Source of the DNA: Escherichia phage vB_EcoP_S523
Reading direction: 5' to 3' (one strand)
Sequence record: MH031343
DNA: 39,825 nucleotides
The position numbers were made by a program, and so were the translations under genes. The notes beneath the pieces are model-generated. The model ran no database searches. It was given only the letters and a program-made list of their open reading frames with translations, and was not told the origin of the DNA. This document shows positions 20-39,825 of the stretch, piece by piece (position 1 is the stretch's first letter; the number at the start of each line of letters is the position of its first letter).

Positions 20-42
20 TTTCGCAATAGTGAGTCGTATTA
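20..42 (-). promoter_or_regulatory. phage RNAP promoter (phi1.3-like), TAATACGACTCACTATTGCGAAA
   Basis: Promoter core downstream of gene 1.2, upstream (across the window wrap) of ligase gene 1.3. Confidence 0.7.
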
Positions 43-312
43 CTTCCAGTGCTTCAGGTCTGCGTGTACCTTGCGGAGCCACTCAGTCTGTGCATTGCAG
101 CGAACGTCTGCGTCGTCTTGTTCGAAACGCTCAGAGGTTAACACTACGCCATTCCGCAAGACCACTCGAAGAGTCTCACCGGATACCCAGCGCATCCTAG
201 CATAGTTATTATAGCGGAAAGTCTCAGTGACCACACGGACATCATGGTCTTCTTTGAGTCGTTCGATAGCGTCTTTGTATGCTATTAAGTTACCACTGTA
301 TAAGCGACCCAT
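40..312 (-). CDS. gene 1.2-like protein (T7 gp1.2 is a host dGTPase inhibitor), 90 aa
   Basis: ORF starts MGRLYSGNL and ends HWK, like recalled T7 gp1.2; sits between gene 1.1 and the promoter preceding ligase; ATG at 310-312 with GGAGG upstream. Confidence 0.6.
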   Translation of the reverse strand: MGRLYSGNLIAYKDAIERLKEDHDVRVVTETFRYNNYARMRWVSGETLRVVLRNGVVLTSERFEQDDADVRCNAQTEWLRKVHADLKHWK

Positions 313-461
313 TAGAGTGCCTCCTTCCAGTTGCGTTTCTCAGAGTTGCCACGCTGTGTCTTGTGGCGTTTCTTCATGCGGTCTTTACGTTCCTGCCATT
401 CAGTACCGTGTTCATTGATTACGTTGTTGCGCTTAGTGGTTGGTTCAAAGTTGGTACGCAT
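312..461 (-). CDS. gene 1.1-like small basic protein, 49 aa
   Basis: Hand-translated minus-strand ORF MRTNFEPTTKRNNVINEHGTEWQERKDRMKKRHKTQRGNSEKRNWKEAL; AAGGA RBS; stop overlaps gene 1.2 start as TAATG; position matches T7 gene 1.1. Confidence 0.45.
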   Translation of the reverse strand: MRTNFEPTTKRNNVINEHGTEWQERKDRMKKRHKTQRGNSEKRNWKEAL

Positions 462-543
462 AATGTTGTTTCCTTCTGTGTAGTTAATGACAGTTAATCA
501 TGAAGGCCACCAAATGTGATGACCTTGAGTTTAACTTTCAGTG

Positions 544-566
544 TTTCCCATTAGTGAGTCGTATTG
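544..566 (-). promoter_or_regulatory. phage RNAP promoter (phi1.1B-like), CAATACGACTCACTAATGGGAAA
   Basis: Promoter core overlapping the stop codon of the 185-aa ORF, upstream of gene 1.1. Confidence 0.75.
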
Positions 567-3850: not shown

Positions 3851-3923
3851 TGTTGCCTCACGTTGTTAAGAAAGTTTATCTATAAAGGCCAGCAGTCAGT
3901 GCCGACCTTGAAGATACACCTTA

Positions 3924-5789: not shown

Positions 5790-5973
5790 GATGATTTCCT
5801 TAGTTGCAGTGATTATCATAAAGGCTTCTCTTTCGAGTCACCTTGAGTTAATCGCTGTTGTCGTCGTCATCTCAAGAGTGCTTATTGTCCAAATTGTTAA
5901 AGAGCTTTAAGTGCAGGTTTGTTAGCACCGAGTCACTTTCAGTGTGTGACCTCACAAGAACGCTATGTCGTAC

Positions 5974-7439: not shown

Positions 7440-9197
7440 TTACCACTCAATGAAGCAGCTAGAGTCTCCATCGTCCTCGTAGTAGATGTCTACGCCACCA
7501 GCCTCGTAGCTATGGATAGCATCACCACCAATGGTCTGTTTCTCCATGTGGTGTTCAAGGAACTCAAGGGTCATAGCTTCCTCACCTACCTTAGAGTCCA
7601 CCTGCATCCCTTCACGAAGGAACTCGATACCCAATGCGATAGCATCAAGACGGTCATCGTGTGCCACAGCGCCCTTCTCACGAGTCATACGGGTCATCTG
7701 ATAGAACGCACTGTAGCGAACATCATGTTTCCCATCAAGGTCACGAGCGGTCTGGTAGTCCTCACGGATTACTTCGTCACGGATGATAAGGCGGTGTGCA
7801 CCCATCAACGGTTCGATAGTATCGCAGATACGCATCTCCTTCATGCCACGAGCGCGAATCTCTTCTAAGGCACACTTGTGGTGCTTCAGGAGAACCGGAG
7901 AGAATACCTTACCAAACATACCATCACCGAAGTTACTCTCGTGTACGACCGTCTGTACCTTCCACTGCTTGGCCTTCTTAGCGAGCTTCTCTAGGGTAGG
8001 GTCATCGTAGCCACCACGGAACCCACCGACTTCCATCAAGTAGATGTAGCCGTTCAGGGTGTAGAGGACCGCGTAACCCGTTTCATCCTTACCACGACCA
8101 GAGGGGTCAATGACGAGAATCTTTTGCTGGTACTCAGCGGTCTTAGAGGAACACACATGGAAGCTGTGAATGTCGTCACCCTTCAGACCCACGTTAGGAA
8201 GTTCCTCATTGCGGTTCTGACGGTTCGGCAACCACTGGTAGGACAATGGGGCACGTTCAGTGTCCACTGCGCACACGATAGCGTCACGGAGCCTCAGAGG
8301 GTACTTCTCGGCATCACTCAGGTTAGGGTTGAGCATGAACTGTAACGTGTAACCAGCTTTACCATATTCGAGTTCACGTTCACGGAGGTCATCCATATCG
8401 AATCGAACAGGGTCAGTAGGTTGTCCACGAAGTAACTCATAGCCATCATCATACTCGGCCTTAAGCATAGGAGCCAATCGGTCGCCATAGTAGAGAGCCT
8501 CAGCATCATTACGTGGATACTGTGCTGGCCAGATTACTGTGCTATACCCTTTGTTATCCTCAAGTTCCTTATAGAGAGTCATCTCGGTTTGAGGTGTCCC
8601 AAGGTAGATAACACGAGAGGTAGGCAACGGCTTAAGCAACGCAGCAAACTCAGTTACCAACGTCCAGAGCTTCTCACGGGCAGAACTCGTAGAACTGTTG
8701 CCGGGAACCTCAACGTCATCCGCAATGATAATATCAGCACGGCTACCAGTCAACTGACCAGTAATACCTACAGACTTCACAGAAGGTGAGTGGTCGGGTT
8801 TCGCCAAGCCTACGTCAAAGCTAATCACAGAGTCACGCTGTCCCGGTCGAGGTTTCAACTCAGCGAGGAATGGCAGCAGGTCAATGATGTTCTTAATGAA
8901 GATGGAGTTAGCATCCGCACGTTCCTTAGAGGCAGACACGATGAGCACCTTAAGTTGAGGGTCACGCCATAGCACCCACACAACGAACGCACAGGTGATA
9001 AAGGACTTGCCGATACCACGGAACGCCTGAAGGATAAACTTCTTGTGGTCGCCATTAGCGAGTGTACGTGCCATATCAATCTGACACTTGGTTGGTTTAG
9101 GTAAGTTCAGAGCCTTCCATAAGACGAACAGGAAGGCCACGAAGTCACCCTTAAGTTGCGCCACGATGAGCGCATTCTTGTTTGCTTGAGTAGACAT
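7440..9197 (-). CDS. terminase large subunit (gp19), 585 aa
   Basis: Near-colinear with T7 gp19 ([54 protein letters not shown]). Confidence 0.95.
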
Positions 9198-10215: not shown

Positions 10216-10313
10216 AACTACCCTCCCGTATTTTCAGATTTCACGTAGCGTCACCGTGAGTTGTGTTGATAATTCATAAAGACCACTAGATGTAGTGGCC
10301 TTGAGTATTACCA

Positions 10314-10583
10314 TCAGTTAAGTGTGTACTTCTCATCTTCAGTGAGGCCATCAGCACCAACTAGGTTCTGGTACTCTTCGAGTCCATCTGCCAGTCCACC
10401 AAGGATGTTACGGTCTGGTTGTAACTTGGAGACTTGGAACTTATGGCGCTCTAACAGTTTCCCGATTGCGTTGTACAATTGAGGTGTACGGCGTTCATCG
10501 TTCTGCAAGTCAGCAAGCATACGTTGAGCCATCTCAGTGTCCAGCATCTCAAGGAATTGAATTAAGGACTTATCATTAGACAT
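10314..10583 (-). CDS. terminase small subunit (gp18), 89 aa
   Basis: MSNDKSLIQFLEMLDT...; same length as T7 gp18. Confidence 0.85.
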   Translation of the reverse strand: MSNDKSLIQFLEMLDTEMAQRMLADLQNDERRTPQLYNAIGKLLERHKFQVSKLQPDRNILGGLADGLEEYQNLVGADGLTEDEKYTLN

Positions 10584-10829: not shown

Positions 10830-12854
10830 TTATTGGGTTTGAACTAAGATTCTCGTAGGTACAGAACTACGGTCAGCATCATTACGGAAAGTTCTCCCGT
10901 TGTTGGAGATTGTGAACTGTAACCACCCGCCCATAGAAGAGATGTAGTATGCACCGTTATCACCAATCTGAACAGGGTTCCAGCGTCCTCGAGTTTGAAT
11001 CCAGATGGTTCTCCATCGGACATCCTGTGAGAGACCTACGGATACCCCACCACCAGCGGAACCTTTCCACACCTCAGCCCAGCCAGCATTCTTACGAATG
11101 TATCGACCGTCAGCGGCACCTTGGGTTAAACGACCATTAACTAGGTTGTTCACCTCTCTTTTGTTATAGGCATGTTCACCAAGGCGTTTGTTGACCCAAC
11201 CGTCGATGTAAGAATCATACTTCTTGATGTATAAGTTACCATCTGCCGCAATCTGCCACCCCTTACTACTTGCCAATGCGCCTTGAATAGTCATTGTAAG
11301 GGCATGTTCATTACCGCCATCCCCCTTGAGTTGGATGATACCATCGTGGAAGTTGTTGCTACCCTTGGATACCATACCGATGGAGAATGCCGCCGGATAA
11401 CCATTAGAGCGTCTACCATATTGTTTAATCATAGGGTAATACACGTTGCCATCCTGATTTCCGGGGAGGCTTTGCGAGTAGGGGGCATTGTTATTCAACT
11501 GGTTTGCGAACCCTCCTGACCCAAAAGTTGACTCAGTGTAGAATCGCTCATCAGCCCTGATATACTTAGATACTCGAAGATAACCATCCATAGATACGTT
11601 CTGGTAGAACCGTGAATCATGGTGAGAGTGGAATCCACCGTAGAAATCGTGGCGTCCGTTCCCATTGGAGCGACCATCAGGCCACTTAGATGGGTCCGTG
11701 TTTGTAAACACATAGTAGTCCATGCGTTTTGGTCCGGCCTGAATCCACTGTTCCCAAACAGTCTCCTTACTGCCCTCCCCACGCCATTGGGTCCACACCA
11801 AGTCAACTGGCTGTGTACCAGCACCTTTTGCATCATTTCGCAACGTAAAGTCCTTACCAGATACTTTGCGCTTGAAGTAAACATCAGGAGCCTCAACCCT
11901 GTCGATAGCCTCAGCTAGTGAGTTCATATTACCCAACTTGTCAGCCTCAGCCTTAGCACGGTCAGCCTCACCTTTGGAGCGGTTTGCCTCAGTGTTGGCT
12001 CGGTCAGCATGTCCCTTAGCGGTCTCAACATGTGCAGCAGCTTTGGCAACCTCAGCAGCAGCTTTAGTCACTTCTCCGGCAGCACGATTGGCCTCATCAC
12101 GGGCACGATTGGCCTCAGAGTTGGAACGGTCAGCTTGCTTCTTGGCCTCAGCGACACTTGCGGTCATACTATCAGCATAACCTTTAGCTCGGTTAGCCTC
12201 AGAGTTGGAACGGTCAGCTTGCTTCTTGGACTCAACTGCTTGTTGCGTAGAGACACCTGCCTGTTGCGTTGAGCGGTCAGCTTCACGTTGAGCACGGTTG
12301 GCCTCATCACGAGAACGGTTTGCTTCCTTATTGGCCCTGTCAGCGTGTTCGTTAGCTTTTGTTACGGCATTCCATGCAGAGGATTCACGCTCTTTAACCT
12401 GCTTTAAAGGAACGGCATCATAGTCACTTGTGGCATACGCCAAGTTAACAATCTTACGACCACGAGCATCTAAGTGACCGTCATTGTTGACACCAATGGT
12501 ATCCGCAGTGAGGTCTCGTGCTTCTTCAGCAACATGCAGTGTTTGAATCTGCGAGATGTTCAGGTCATATGCACGGAGGATTGAGCCATCAGCAAGGTCA
12601 ACCAGACGATCAGTAGCCGAAGTGAATCGACGAATCTCAATCATCTGGTAGCCATCAGCGGCAGTCCACGCACGGGTAGTAGTAATTTGAGTCTTACTGG
12701 TAAAACGATAGTCCTGATTGAGAACCAGTTCTTTACGGTCTTTACCAATAAGTGTCACTTGGATGAACTTACGTGCCAGATAATCAAAGGTAATCGTGAA
12801 ATTCACGGCACCATTCAGCGGGTAAGTCATCACAGTACGAATCTTGTTAGCCAT
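10830..12854 (-). CDS. tail fiber protein (gp17), 674 aa, with extended shaft and distal domain
   Basis: N-terminal about 150 aa and C-terminal about 90 aa match T7 gp17 (FEYLARKF..VTLIG, GSAGGGVSV..SQD); central ADRxNxEANR repeats; about 120 aa longer than T7 gp17 (553 aa). Confidence 0.9.
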   Translation of the reverse strand: MANKIRTVMTYPLNGAVNFTITFDYLARKFIQVTLIGKDRKELVLNQDYRFTSKTQITTTRAWTAADGYQMIEIRRFTSATDRLVDLADGSILRAYDLNISQIQTLHVAEEARDLTADTIGVNNDGHLDARGRKIVNLAYATSDYDAVPLKQVKERESSAWNAVTKANEHADRANKEANRSRDEANRAQREADRSTQQAGVSTQQAVESKKQADRSNSEANRAKGYADSMTASVAEAKKQADRSNSEANRARDEANRAAGEVTKAAAEVAKAAAHVETAKGHADRANTEANRSKGEADRAKAEADKLGNMNSLAEAIDRVEAPDVYFKRKVSGKDFTLRNDAKGAGTQPVDLVWTQWRGEGSKETVWEQWIQAGPKRMDYYVFTNTDPSKWPDGRSNGNGRHDFYGGFHSHHDSRFYQNVSMDGYLRVSKYIRADERFYTESTFGSGGFANQLNNNAPYSQSLPGNQDGNVYYPMIKQYGRRSNGYPAAFSIGMVSKGSNNFHDGIIQLKGDGGNEHALTMTIQGALASSKGWQIAADGNLYIKKYDSYIDGWVNKRLGEHAYNKREVNNLVNGRLTQGAADGRYIRKNAGWAEVWKGSAGGGVSVGLSQDVRWRTIWIQTRGRWNPVQIGDNGAYYISSMGGWLQFTISNNGRTFRNDADRSSVPTRILVQTQ
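12112..12229 (-). repeat. in-frame direct repeat inside tail fiber shaft region (34-nt identical copies at 12112..12145 and 12196..12229, 84 nt apart)
   Basis: gcctcagagttggaacggtcagcttgcttcttgg occurs twice; encodes repeated KKQADRSNSEANRA. Confidence 0.7.
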
Positions 12855-27382: not shown

Positions 27383-27733
27383 TTAGATATTAAGACCACC
27401 GCCAGAACTACGAGCGACACTCAGAGATTTCTTACCACCAGCACGAGCTTTCTTCTTACCAGATTCGGTCTGTGCATCATCATCGGTGTCCACATCGTCT
27501 TTACTCGGTGGCTCAATAATCTGCGCAGCTACAGGAGCGGCTTGTTCAACCACCTGTACATCAGGCTTACCACCACCAGCAAGTGCACCAGCAACGCCAC
27601 CAACGACTTTACCAGCTTCCTTCCCGACCTTCTCGACTGCCTTACCAGTTTCCTTGACAATCTTCTCGACTGGCTTAGTTACTTTCTTGATAGTCTTTTT
27701 GATTTTCTTACGAATCTTTTTACCCCAACCCAT
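27383..27733 (-). CDS. gp7.3-like tail/host-range protein, 116 aa
   Basis: Lysine-rich N-terminus and C-terminus ESGKKKARAGGKKSLSVARSSGGGLNI as in T7 gp7.3. Confidence 0.8.
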   Translation of the reverse strand: MGWGKKIRKKIKKTIKKVTKPVEKIVKETGKAVEKVGKEAGKVVGGVAGALAGGGKPDVQVVEQAAPVAAQIIEPPSKDDVDTDDDAQTESGKKKARAGGKKSLSVARSSGGGLNI

Positions 27734-32310: not shown

Positions 32311-32727
32311 TTAAAATGTTGAACGGCGATAGCCCATGAAGTTCTTAGGGTCAACCACACGCAGGTTCTTGTGGTTCAGCTTGTGATACTGAATCCCAGC
32401 GACTGTGCCCATTGCATCAATGCGAGTCACACGGGAGCACCAAATGTCTGTCCCCTCGACCTTACGGACATACCAAATGTCTGCATTGCTGGTGGAGGTG
32501 CAGAAGTCCCCAGCCTTAATGTGGGTCATCTTGTTTGCGTCGAAAGTCTGCATACCAACGCTACCACTATTGGTTACTGGTTTGACCCACTTGCCATACT
32601 TGCGGGTCCACCCTAAGTTCTTCAGGATGTGTACCGCAGAGTCACGCGCACATTCATACTCTTTGACATCAGCCAGTTCAGCTTGCAACTTAGAGATTTC
32701 AGCTTCGATTACATTACGATTACGCAT
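32311..32727 (-). CDS. gene 4.7-like hypothetical protein, 138 aa
   Basis: Position between gene 4.5-like ORF and gene 5; size close to T7 gp4.7 (135 aa); preceded by a variant phage promoter. Confidence 0.55.
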   Translation of the reverse strand: MRNRNVIEAEISKLQAELADVKEYECARDSAVHILKNLGWTRKYGKWVKPVTNSGSVGMQTFDANKMTHIKAGDFCTSTSNADIWYVRKVEGTDIWCSRVTRIDAMGTVAGIQYHKLNHKNLRVVDPKNFMGYRRSTF

Positions 32728-32735
32728 AGTGTTGT

Positions 32736-32758
32736 TCTCCCATTAGTGAGTTGAATAG
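32736..32758 (-). promoter_or_regulatory. variant phage RNAP promoter, CTATTCAACTCACTAATGGGAGA
   Basis: Conserved -11 to +6 (ACTCACTAATGGGAGA) but divergent -17 to -12; directly upstream of the gene 4.7-like ATG. Confidence 0.5.
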
Positions 32759-32767
32759 ATTTCATAC

Positions 32768-32816
32768 AAAAGTTAATCACCAAGGCCACCCGTAGATGAC
32801 CTTTAGTTTAACTCTT
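32768..32816 (-). promoter_or_regulatory. conserved ~48-nt structured element (putative RNase III processing site, R4.7-like); copy B
   Basis: aaaagttaatcaccaaggccacccgtagatgacctttagtttaactc; near-identical to the element at 39776..39825; imperfect long hairpin with internal bulges. Confidence 0.45.
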
Positions 32817-32817
32817 A

Positions 32818-32890
32818 CTCTTCACACTTGTCAGCAAGCATGTTGCCCTCAGAACTCTTCACACTTGTCAGCAAGCATGTTGCCCTCAGA
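32818..32890 (-). repeat. 37-bp tandem duplication (2 copies: 32818..32853 and 32855..32890) spanning the gene 4.5 stop codon
   Basis: ctcttcacacttgtcagcaagcatgttgccctcaga repeated back-to-back; the upstream copy encodes the last 12 codons of the gene 4.5-like ORF, the downstream copy is untranslated. Confidence 0.85.
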
Positions 32891-33154
32891 CTCCACGGCT
32901 TTACCTAGCAGAACCTGACGAACATTGTCTTCGCCTACAGCCACAGTAGCGGCTACAGCAACGGAGGCCAGCAGACGACCTGCCTGTGTGTCATCCAGAG
33001 TCACACGCTGTGTGTGCGCCTTGGTTGACTTACTGTCCTTCCAGCGGTAGACCAGAGTTACCTTGCCGTTGCGAACGTTGATGTGCACTCGGCGAGCATA
33101 CTGGTCGATGGTGTCAGACAGACGGATTGTGTTGCCGGGGAATTTAATAGCCAT
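32849..33154 (-). CDS. gene 4.5-like hypothetical protein, 101 aa
   Basis: ORF with ATG at 33152-33154; position between gene 4.3-like and gene 4.7-like ORFs. Confidence 0.55.
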   Translation of the reverse strand: MAIKFPGNTIRLSDTIDQYARRVHINVRNGKVTLVYRWKDSKSTKAHTQRVTLDDTQAGRLLASVAVAATVAVGEDNVRQVLLGKAVESEGNMLADKCEEF

Positions 33155-35665: not shown

Positions 35666-36121
35666 TTATCCCCAATCACTTGTTACTAATTCACCAGTCT
35701 TCAGCCAGCGACTCAAGTTAAAACTTGGACACGCTTTAGGAGCCACATCGTGGTGTGCTTTGATTTCTGCATCCGGGTACAGGTCTTTCAGGTCTGCCAG
35801 TTTCTCTTTAAGAGAGTGCATCTGTGCTGGCGTAAAGTTAGCTTCGTGTCTGCCCTTATCGTCGATACCACCAACGAGGCACACACCAACTGACTTACTG
35901 TTCCAGTCTTTCACATGAGACCCAACGACACCGACCGGACGGCCTTCTTCGATTGTACCATCACGGCGAATAATGAAGTGGTAGCCTACATCAAGCCAGC
36001 CCTGTTCTTTATGCCACTGACGGATTTCACGCAGACCGACATTCATGGTCGCCTTAGTTGCGCTACAATGGACAAAGATTGCTTCTGTCACAGCGCGTGG
36101 TTTGAATTGTACCTTACTCAT
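35666..36121 (-). CDS. lysozyme / N-acetylmuramoyl-L-alanine amidase (gp3.5), 151 aa
   Basis: Same length as T7 gp3.5; conserved AIFVHCSATK, REIRQWHKEQGWLDVGYHFII, HHDVAPKACPSF. Confidence 0.92.
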   Translation of the reverse strand: MSKVQFKPRAVTEAIFVHCSATKATMNVGLREIRQWHKEQGWLDVGYHFIIRRDGTIEEGRPVGVVGSHVKDWNSKSVGVCLVGGIDDKGRHEANFTPAQMHSLKEKLADLKDLYPDAEIKAHHDVAPKACPSFNLSRWLKTGELVTSDWG

Positions 36122-36564
36122 TTCTTCTTCACCTCTTTAAATTTATCGAATGGAACATCCTTAGAAGGCTCTTTAAGCCAATCAACTGGAATTAATTTGT
36201 CAGCAAACAGAATGCCATGCTTCTCACACCACTCGCCATAACTGGTCGGAGACCCTTTGTACAGCTTGGAGCGACTAGAAGAGAACACGATGCGCACATC
36301 AAGTTCAGGATACTGTTCACGGATAAGTAAGTGCTTCTTACGGTCGTCACTGTCCCACAGACCTTTGGTTTCCACAAAGATGCCATTAGGTAACAGGAAG
36401 TCCGGGCAATAGGTATGGTTGCTTGCAGGAACAACATATGGTACACGCCAACGCTCGTAGTCGAACTTAATGTTCTTCCCTTCGAGTTGTTTGCTTACCT
36501 TATCCTCCAAGCCAGAGCGAAAGGCACCCACACGAGTGCCTCGACCTGCATAGCCCTTAGCCAT
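36118..36564 (-). CDS. endonuclease I, Holliday-junction resolvase (gp3), 148 aa
   Basis: Colinear with T7 gp3 (VGAFRSGLEDKVSKQLE, PDFLLPNGIFVETKGLW). Confidence 0.9.
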   Translation of the reverse strand: MAKGYAGRGTRVGAFRSGLEDKVSKQLEGKNIKFDYERWRVPYVVPASNHTYCPDFLLPNGIFVETKGLWDSDDRKKHLLIREQYPELDVRIVFSSSRSKLYKGSPTSYGEWCEKHGILFADKLIPVDWLKEPSKDVPFDKFKEVKKK

Positions 36565-38510: not shown

Positions 38511-38693
38511 CTACATGTTGGCGTGAAGATATGCCTTTACCTCGGATATGCTTCTACACTCTTTCTGTGTGAAGTAATCCCACTTGCGTCCATAAGAGGC
38601 TGGGTCGTCTCCCTCAGACCACTTCAGGATGTGGAATACCTGTAAGTGTGGGTGTTGCCATACCTTCCAAATGCCTTGGTCAAAGATTATCAT
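38511..38693 (-). CDS. hypothetical protein, 60 aa, immediately downstream of ligase
   Basis: ORF MIIFDQGIWKVWQ...; start overlaps ligase stop (TAATG); lies before the TE-like terminator. Confidence 0.4.
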   Translation of the reverse strand: MIIFDQGIWKVWQHPHLQVFHILKWSEGDDPASYGRKWDYFTQKECRSISEVKAYLHANM

Positions 38694-39739
38694 TACATCT
38701 TCTCCGTTGGGTTATCTTCAGTACCACGGAACATAACGAACGATGGGTGACGCAGAGAACCATCAGGAGTTTCCTCCATGTAGGCAACCTGACACGCCCA
38801 ATTCATATAAGGCGCTGGCTTCATGCCATCCTCAGTGGTCTCCCACTTGGTGTACGCTTCGGTAAACTCATCCATCAGAGCGCGAGAGATGTTTGTGGCG
38901 TTAACTACACGACCACTCTCAAGAAGCACTTCGAATCCGATAATCTTACCTTCGTTAGCCAAGCCGGGAGTTCCCCAGCAGTATCCAATGACCTCACCAT
39001 CAGCTTCACTCTCAGGCTTCATCTTCCACCAGCCAGACTTCTTACCACGCTTGTAGACTTCCAGCGGGTCTTTGACAACCAGACCTTCATGACCATCGGC
39101 GCGAGCTTTCTCGTAGAGTTCCTGAAGTTCTACCATGTCGTAGACTTCTTTGGCCTCAGAGAGTTCCCAAGTGATTTCCGGGAAGTGTTCACTAAGAACC
39201 GGAATGAGGGAACGCACATGCTCTTGCATCAGGAGGGACATAACGCCGTACTCTTTGCCTTCTACCATATCGTGATACGGCATAGCAGCATACAAGACAA
39301 CCTTCAGGCGCTGTGGGTCTAACTCAAACGGCTGTTTGTTCTTCTTCCACTCTTCATGGAAGTATTCGCTGGTGGAGTGCACGAAGTTTGTGGCCTTGAG
39401 CCACTTGGTTCTCAGTAGGCCAGACCCTGTGTTGAAGTCTACGCCTTTGACCATGAGTTCGCCATCCAGCATAAAGCCATCAGGGAAAATCCAGCGGTCA
39501 TCTTTGAGAACATTAGCCCAGCGTTGGTCGAACCCATTAAGGTGCTCAAGCGCGGGGATGGTCTTGGAGACACGGGACAGCCACAGGCAGTCAGCCGTAT
39601 TGTCAACCACGATGTTACCACGTACACCATCATGCTTAGTGTCAGCAATCAGGTAGCCAGCCTTGTCGAGTGCTTTCTTAATGGCAGACTCAACGTAGGA
39701 TACTGCTTTGAACGGCGAAGTCTTAAATGTGATTTCCAT
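38693..39739 (-). CDS. ATP-dependent DNA ligase (gp1.3), 348 aa
   Basis: Catalytic lysine motif KHDGVRG (T7: KYDGVRG) and conserved PFKAVSYVESAIKKALD, GSLRHPSFVMFRGTEDNP..EKM. Confidence 0.95.
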   Translation of the reverse strand: MEITFKTSPFKAVSYVESAIKKALDKAGYLIADTKHDGVRGNIVVDNTADCLWLSRVSKTIPALEHLNGFDQRWANVLKDDRWIFPDGFMLDGELMVKGVDFNTGSGLLRTKWLKATNFVHSTSEYFHEEWKKNKQPFELDPQRLKVVLYAAMPYHDMVEGKEYGVMSLLMQEHVRSLIPVLSEHFPEITWELSEAKEVYDMVELQELYEKARADGHEGLVVKDPLEVYKRGKKSGWWKMKPESEADGEVIGYCWGTPGLANEGKIIGFEVLLESGRVVNATNISRALMDEFTEAYTKWETTEDGMKPAPYMNWACQVAYMEETPDGSLRHPSFVMFRGTEDNPTEKM

Positions 39740-39775: not shown

Positions 39776-39825
39776 CAAAAGTTAATCACAAAGGCCACCC
39801 GTGAAGATGACCTTTAGTTTAACTC
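39776..39825 (-). promoter_or_regulatory. conserved ~50-nt structured element (putative RNase III processing site, R1.3-like); copy A, continuing into window start
   Basis: aaaagttaatcacaaaggccacccgtgaagatgacctttagtttaactc; last 19 nt identical to window positions 1..19; lies between the phi1.3-like promoter and the ligase RBS. Confidence 0.45.

Follow-up and report, generated by a model that had tools for sequence, protein, structure and literature searches.

Dunn and Studier are said to have described, in 1983, the sites of phage T7 at which RNase III processes the mRNA (R1.1, R1.3 and R4.7), and the processed RNA ends known from the classical T7 work are 5'-pGAU and ...CCUUUAU-OH. In phage T3 (NC_003298), three stem_loops, R1.1, R1.3 and R4.7, carry the annotation 'RNase III recognition site' and lie at the same three positions as the sites that we describe here, and the T7 sites have the same placement as ours relative to genes 1.1, 1.3 and 4.7 and to the promoters. 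The T7 RefSeq stretches examined annotate promoters and no RNase III features. The T7 R1.1 RNA is the reference substrate of RNase III and is cut at a single phosphodiester (PMC4858673). The enzyme needs about two helical turns, the sequence of the tetraloop is not critical, and internal loops confine cleavage to one phosphodiester, leaving a protective 3' hairpin (PMC1540722, PMC3867540). In the searchable literature, we found no mention of RNase III sites for BA14, Kvp1, Berlin, Yepe2 or Yep-phi, and no report of cleavage, transcript ends or RNase III dependence in a Berlinvirus. None of the Berlinvirus matches listed in our searches annotates the hairpins described below; the feature beneath them is none at all, a promoter or a CDS, or the record is unannotated.

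The DNA analyzed here is the whole 39,825-nt stretch of sequence record MH031343 from Escherichia phage vB_EcoP_S523 (hereafter the window). It is 90–96% identical to Berlinvirus genomes (for example D226, BA14, ErnstBeyeler, Kvp1 and FE44), and its sequence identifies it as a complete T7-like Berlinvirus genome of the BA14/FE44 type, circularly permuted and reverse-complemented. Because of the reverse-complement orientation, all phage genes lie on the minus strand. The repeat-family listing of the window contains 15 copies of a T7-type promoter motif, and no second copy of a terminal repeat of ~190 bp, which is annotated in BA14, is found among the families listed. Two other sets of repeats lie in minus-strand coding regions, one at 11937–12356 with a 21-nt period (5–8 copies, 65–74% identical) and the other a separate 33-nt tandem pair at 27609–27674 (82% identical); at the protein level, they probably correspond to heptad or 11-residue repeats.

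The two ends of the window need a comment, since the first of the elements runs into them. Bases 1–19 are an exact repeat of bases 39807–39825, and this 19-nt identity is the overlap between the ends of a circularly permuted assembly, which was opened within the R1.3 hairpin. Past 39825, the R1.3 element resumes at base 20 and not at base 1; the preliminary description had let it continue into 1–19, which in fact repeats 39807–39825. An 826-nt query spanning the junction was covered over at least 80% of its length by 42 phage records, and the matches listed are each a single aligned piece. Since the junction is contiguous in other phage records, the join of the window ends is genuine.

Two copies of the element, at 39776–39825 (continued at 20–21) and at 32767–32816, lie 7 kb apart and are identical in 49 of the 52 columns of a global alignment (94%). 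Their sole differences are a substitution (a at 39790, c at 32781) and a 2-nt indel ('ga' at 39803–39804). This alignment agrees with the preliminary description, which had noted two near-identical elements with one substitution and a 2-nt indel, and which had placed them in the leaders of genes 1.3 and 4.7, a placement confirmed by the ligase and gp4.5/gp4.7 protein families. Both copies are present, but the boundaries first given for them need correction: they opened with 'aaaagtt', which starts at 39777, whereas the c at 39776 and 32767 is the first base of the shared run; the run also reaches 2 nt beyond 'aactc'. Nor does the count of two hold, as a third, more diverged copy lies at 485–540 before gene 1.1 (~77% identical to the other two). 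Searches with the halves of the element (at most 3 mismatches) and with a gapped core pattern each found exactly three places in the window, and the same searches on 100 dinucleotide shuffles gave no match. By homology with T7 and T3, the elements at 39776–39825, 32767–32816 and 485–540 are very probably R1.3, R4.7 and R1.1, the sites of RNase III processing in this Berlinvirus, and the near-identity of the first two is very probably inherited. Under these names, the features of the three loci are as follows.

39776..39825, minus strand: main part of the R1.3 hairpin (covariance-model match 39779–39825, 60.5 bits, cut by the window end); RNA GAGUUAAACUAAAGGUCAUC-UUCACG-GGUGGCCUUUGUGAUUAACUUUUG
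20–25, minus strand (RNA GCGAAA): start nucleotide (+1 G) of phi1.3, together with the two bases that open the lower stem of R1.3
20..42, minus strand: promoter phi1.3 (TAATACGACTCACTATT followed directly by the transcribed GCGAAA), a member of the promoter repeat family; phi1.3 is annotated here in BA14, Kvp1 and FE44
38693..39739, minus strand: gene 1.3, ATP-dependent DNA ligase (phrog_114, E 6.9e-89; annotations of relatives)
40..312, minus strand: gene 1.2, dGTPase inhibitor, upstream of R1.3
32764..32817, minus strand: R4.7 hairpin (covariance model, 69.1 bits); hairpin RNA UAAGAGUUAAACUAAAGGUCAUC-UACG-GGUGGCCUUGGUGAUUAACUUUUG
32736..32758, minus strand: weak phi4.7-type promoter (CTATTCAACTCACTAATGGGAGA; promoter family, 79% identity); phi4.7 is annotated here in BA14, Kvp1 and FE44
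32311..32727, minus strand: gene 4.7 (phrog_4023, E 1.2e-55; BA14 gp4.7 annotation)
32849..33154, minus strand: gene 4.5 (phrog_2254), its 3' end changed by a 37-nt tandem duplication
485..540, minus strand: R1.1 hairpin, the third copy (covariance model, 70.7 bits)
543–566, minus strand: promoter phi1.1, upstream of the R1.1 hairpin
312–461, minus strand: gene 1.1, downstream of the R1.1 hairpin

Read along the minus strand, the order is thus gene 1.2, phi1.3, hairpin and gene 1.3 at the first locus, gene 4.5, hairpin, phi4.7 and gene 4.7 at the second, and phi1.1, hairpin and gene 1.1 at the third. The stop codon of gene 1.2 falls within promoter phi1.3, transcription from phi1.3 starts ~4 nt ahead of the R1.3 hairpin, and a leader of ~40 nt separates this hairpin from the ligase gene. 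At the second locus, the ancestral gene 4.5 stop UAA (32817–32815) overlaps the base of the R4.7 hairpin, and the phi4.7-type promoter is placed between the hairpin and gene 4.7. Where gene 4.5 ends (3'), and directly adjoining this hairpin, the window also carries a perfect 37-nt tandem duplication (32817–32853 and 32854–32890) bounded by ACTC microhomology. ErnstBeyeler, BA14, Carena and FE44 lack the duplication, and the megablast matches listed are all split in two there. It lengthens gp4.5 by one residue (...CEEF-stop vs ...CEE-stop), its second copy forming an added 3' untranslated stretch before the hairpin, and it could either have arisen by true slippage or be an error of sequencing or assembly.

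On the sense (minus) strand, the minimum free energies of the folded elements are −21.7 (R1.3), −21.5 (R4.7) and −18.1 kcal/mol (R1.1), with z-scores against shuffles of −4.68, −5.09 and −3.65, respectively. That the sequence can fold into a long imperfect hairpin had been proposed from its letters, and RNA folding of both original copies (z of −4.7 and −5.1) bears this out. The plus-strand transcript of the R1.3 and R4.7 DNA gave −7.5 and −6.3 kcal/mol (z about −0.4), which is no better than shuffles; the antisense fold is weak because several of the pairs are G-U, and the restriction of the fold to the minus strand makes the structure specific to the transcribed strand. The hairpin consists of two helices of ~20 bp in total, or about two helical turns, with a small loop on top. 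The lower stem has ~9 bp (AAGAGUUAA / UUAACUUUU) and the upper stem 9–10 bp (AAGGUCAUC / GGUGGCCUU). Between the two helices, all copies have an asymmetric internal loop with ACU(A/C) on the 5' side and (N)(G/A)UGA on the 3' side, located at the conserved CCUU-N-R-UGAU motif. The indel that distinguishes R1.3 from R4.7 sits in the apical loop (CUUCACGG vs CUACGG, a C-G-closed UACG tetraloop), and the substitution is the internal-loop base directly after GGCCUU. Since both differences are unpaired, all paired bases are the same in the two copies. Variation within the element is greatest in the apical loop, which seems to shift among stable tetraloop sequences; many apical loops are C-G-closed UNCG tetraloops, with UACG in R4.7 of the window and UCCG and UUCG in relatives.

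For this phage, we infer cleavage, its exact position and its physiological effects as follows. The hairpin would form in read-through transcripts from upstream promoters, and the R1.3 hairpin would form also in transcripts begun at phi1.3, ~4 nt upstream. Host RNase III would then bind the quasi-continuous helix made by the two coaxial stems, which spans about two helical turns, and would cut the 3' strand only, between the U and the GAU of GGCCUU-N-R-UGAU, a position assigned by homology with T7; the internal loop would be responsible for the cut being confined to a single strand. A protective 3' hairpin would remain on the upstream mRNA, and the mRNA beyond the cut (for ligase, or from gene 4.7 onward) would receive a 5'-monophosphate GAUUAAC... 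end. In window coordinates, the predicted cuts would fall between U39788 and G39787 in R1.3, between U32779 and G32778 in R4.7, and between U500 and G499 in R1.1.

The two-helix fold is also the consensus of the wider family of such sites. Our alignment of this family comprises 46 distinct sites, drawn from T7 as well as from the window, eight relatives and IMG/VR pieces. The sites were collected by a regular expression requiring AAGG[TC]C...GG[CT]CTT, so that the invariance at the base of the upper stem is partly by construction, and the breadth added by the IMG/VR pattern scan is small because its 24 stretches are mostly isolate genomes already present in GenBank. The RNAalifold consensus of the 46 sites contains the same two helices. 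Across 18 pairs and 46 sites, 94.9% of the cells can pair, compared with 86.9 ± 0.5 in column shuffles, and pairing drops to 27–58% when the partners are slid by 1–3 columns. Two-sided changes occur in 11 of the 18 pairs, including all nine pairs of the lower stem.

A covariance model built from this alignment, which contains no T3 sequence, was used to scan the whole window with filters off. Six places in the window match at 40 bits or more, all of them on the minus strand and all intergenic at T7-equivalent positions, and the next-best match has 14 bits. Besides the three hairpins listed above, the matches are the following.

3867..3923, minus strand: R1-type hairpin between genes 0.7 and 1 (53.8 bits; the BA14 equivalent, 2913–2969, lies between gp0.7 and gp1)
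10261..10316, minus strand: R18.5-type hairpin before gene 18.5 (50.6 bits; the BA14 equivalent, 36109–36164, lies upstream of gp18.5)
5803..5858, minus strand: R0.3-type hairpin before gene 0.3 (40.1 bits; the BA14 equivalent is 980–1035, and BA14 gene 0.3 starts at 1050)

The labels R1, R18.5 and R0.3 were assigned through the equivalent matches in BA14 and the BA14 annotation. The R0.3 site lies outside the training alignment, and the core of the R18.5 site has its G-U wobble positions swapped, reading GGCC...GGUC rather than GGUC...GGCC. As a positive control, the matches of the model in T3 at 1003–1058, 1514–1569 and 7970–8023 coincide with the curated RNase III stem_loops R1.1, R1.3 and R4.7, the scores being 69.8, 38.6 and 63.1 bits. 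T3 R3.8, which is a different type of hairpin, gave no match to the covariance model. An Rfam scan of the whole window on both strands returned no family at the gathering score.

A 61-nt query with the element found 306 places in 218 phage records. Among the matches listed, Berlinvirus-type records have two places each, and T3-like (Teetrevirus) records have one, at R1.1 between genes 1.05 and 1.1. R1.3 and R4.7 are near-identical in all 13 other Berlinvirus genomes compared, where they are 1–9 edits apart (3 in the window), and the pair is present in every examined Berlinvirus that keeps the gene 4.5–4.7 junction. Kvp1 is without this junction and without R4.7, a gene 2.8-type homing endonuclease standing there in place of genes 4.3–4.5. 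The R1.1 copy is missing in FE44, PYPS50 and Berlin. Orthologous hairpins occupy the same positions in FE44, BA14, 285P, Yersinia phage Berlin, Yepe2 and others, and differ chiefly in their apical loops and at a single internal-loop base. In FE44, R1.3 is 100% identical to that of the window over 60 nt, and the pair carries the same two loop variants; its R4.7 is two bases off, at an upstream position and at an internal-loop position. The R4.7 element is clearly an island of conservation, with a mean pairwise identity of 0.94 against 0.60–0.73 in its flanks (8 genomes). R1.3 is not conserved above its flanks (0.71 vs 0.76–0.79), and its low value is due to the hypervariable apical loop. Most likely, selection acts to preserve the paired bases, and drift is confined to the apical loop and a single base of the internal loop.

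The near-identity of R1.3 and R4.7 is thus a property of the genus, and comparison with the other known sites gives a hint of its source. R1.3 of the window is 62–69% identical to R1.3 of T3 and T7, and R4.7 of the window is 68–76% identical to R4.7 of T3 and T7. T3 R1.1, by comparison, is 88% identical to R1.3 and 84% identical to R4.7 of the window, and T3 R1.3 and R4.7 have lower stems of their own. The R4.7 sites of T3 and T7 are each other's best match (78%), and the signal between T3 and T7 R1.3 is weak (68%). That this sequence type occurs once in T3-like phages, at R1.1, suggests an old copying into the other two positions. The most economical history, which we slightly favor, is that the ancestor of Berlinvirus acquired copies of an R1.1-type hairpin at R1.3 and R4.7, through gene conversion or ectopic recombination, and that its descendants have kept them; the elements compared are ~50 nt long, and T3 and T7 are the only outgroups aligned base by base. 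Where the preliminary description offered internal duplication or a shared regulatory function, the sites are indeed paralogous RNase III sites, but the copying would be an old one that concerns the whole genus and did not take place in this particular genome.

A different account of the likeness is continuing concerted evolution, in which frequent gene conversion would keep the three sites alike within each genome. Two genomes give it some encouragement. In D226, one G-to-A stem change recurs at each of the three sites, and the loop UUAAUGA is found in both R1.3 and R4.7; in ErnstBeyeler, R1.1 and R4.7 have the loop UACAUGG in common, which R1.3 lacks. Both patterns could be parallel change or short conversion patches. 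In the D226 sites (8480–8535, 7956–8010 and 993–1047), the change affects pair eight of the upper stem, a U-G that becomes U-A. Label-permutation tests on 9–13 genomes showed little excess likeness between sites of one genome: same-genome and different-genome distances were 4.92 and 5.26 for R1.3/R4.7 (p = 0.11), 9.91 and 10.15 for R1.1/R1.3 (p = 0.04, marginal) and 8.89 and 9.11 for R1.1/R4.7 (p = 0.23). In addition, the signatures of the individual sites are stable across genomes, with UUUGUG at R1.3, UUCAUG at R1.1 and characteristic downstream flanks. We consider this account unlikely, and as the permutation tests are barely significant or non-significant, we make no claim of active concerted evolution.

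A broader conjecture is that the RNase III hairpins of T7-like phages are exchangeable cassettes, the R1.1-type allele (AGAGUUAAACU...GUGAUUAACUUU) having spread by ectopic gene conversion to R1.3 and R4.7 in the ancestor of Berlinvirus, being still occasionally patched between sites (D226, ErnstBeyeler), and being kept because its exact sequence, beyond its pairing, has a second function; we regard this combination as quite unlikely. Its last component can be considered separately. The uniform lower stem (AGAGUUAAACU / GUGAUUAACUUUU) might have a second, sequence-specific function, such as the binding of a phage or host protein or the provision of a common 5' leader (GAUUAACUUUUG). RNase III sites in T7 and T3 tolerate different lower stems with compensatory changes, and yet genomes throughout the genus retain this exact lower stem at two or three of their sites, as T3-like phages do at R1.1. 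Common descent together with selection on pairing can, however, account for this uniformity, and position 7 of the lower stem is free at R1.3 (T, G or C), with one pair broken. Such a function seems to us quite unlikely.

A recent duplication or gene conversion in this one genome would be the simplest way of making R1.3 and R4.7 alike. The copies are 94% identical although they are 7 kb apart, a truly recent tandem duplication, that of 37 nt, adjoins R4.7, and T7-like phages recombine efficiently at short homologies. FE44, however, has the same two loop variants, with R1.3 identical over 60 nt and R4.7 two bases off, and the near-identical pair recurs in the 13 other Berlinvirus genomes, for which the 3 edits of the window are typical. 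We rejected a recent event on the strength of FE44 and the genus-wide pair, and hold it to be very improbable.

The hairpins could also be read as transcription terminators or attenuators rather than as processing sites, for they are stable, GC-containing and intergenic, with UUUU a few bases downstream. This U-run, however, belongs to the lower stem, and the internal loop parts it from the GC-rich upper stem. The R1.3 hairpin begins ~4 nt past a promoter start and directly before the gene served by that promoter, the homologous elements in T7 and T3 are known as RNase III sites, either established or curated, and the terminators TE and Tphi annotated in BA14 are located elsewhere. A scan for the intrinsic-terminator consensus flags neither R1.3 nor R4.7, and on this result the terminator reading, which we judge highly unlikely, was rejected. 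Finally, it is next to inconceivable that the repeat is an artefact of an assembly whose contig starts and ends inside it, as the 19-nt overlap of the window ends might suggest, and this was rejected on the contiguity of the junction in the 42 records of independently sequenced phages; both copies are, moreover, found in relatives.

The reading of the three elements as inherited RNase III sites leaves our understanding of T7-type gene expression unchanged. The kind of element is textbook, and these instances of it are unannotated, straightforward homologues; the copying of one hairpin allele to three positions at the level of the genus is the only, and mildly, new point. For annotation, the covariance model is of value in that it places six RNase III sites in this genome, which are unmarked in the listed Berlinvirus records. 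The near-identity of R1.3 and R4.7, set against the single R1.1 copy in T3-like phages, makes a small and clean case of a regulatory RNA copied between intergenic positions. These sites are also natural 'allele swaps' that can be used for asking what RNase III requires besides helix geometry.

Compared with the best-known sites, those of T7, the sites described here have much in common with them and also differ. First, T7 R1.1, R1.3 and R4.7 share with them the core AAGGUC...UGGCCUU-N-R-UGA and the fold of two helices with an internal loop. Second, the first 8 upper-stem pairs of T7 R1.1 are identical to those of the window sites, the core AAGGUCAU...GUGGCCUU being present in both; this homology covers the proximal-box/distal-box region, compared as a region rather than by published position. 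Third, the apical loops differ, with UACG and UUCACG in the window and GCAA and others in T7. Finally, R1.3 and R4.7 of the window are identical at the 94% level and have the same lower stem as R1.1, whereas the three T7 sites do not share theirs and are only 60–68% identical in pairwise comparison, in line with the early remark that the T7 sites are not near-identical to each other. The divergence among the three T7 sites indicates that RNase III function needs no near-identity.
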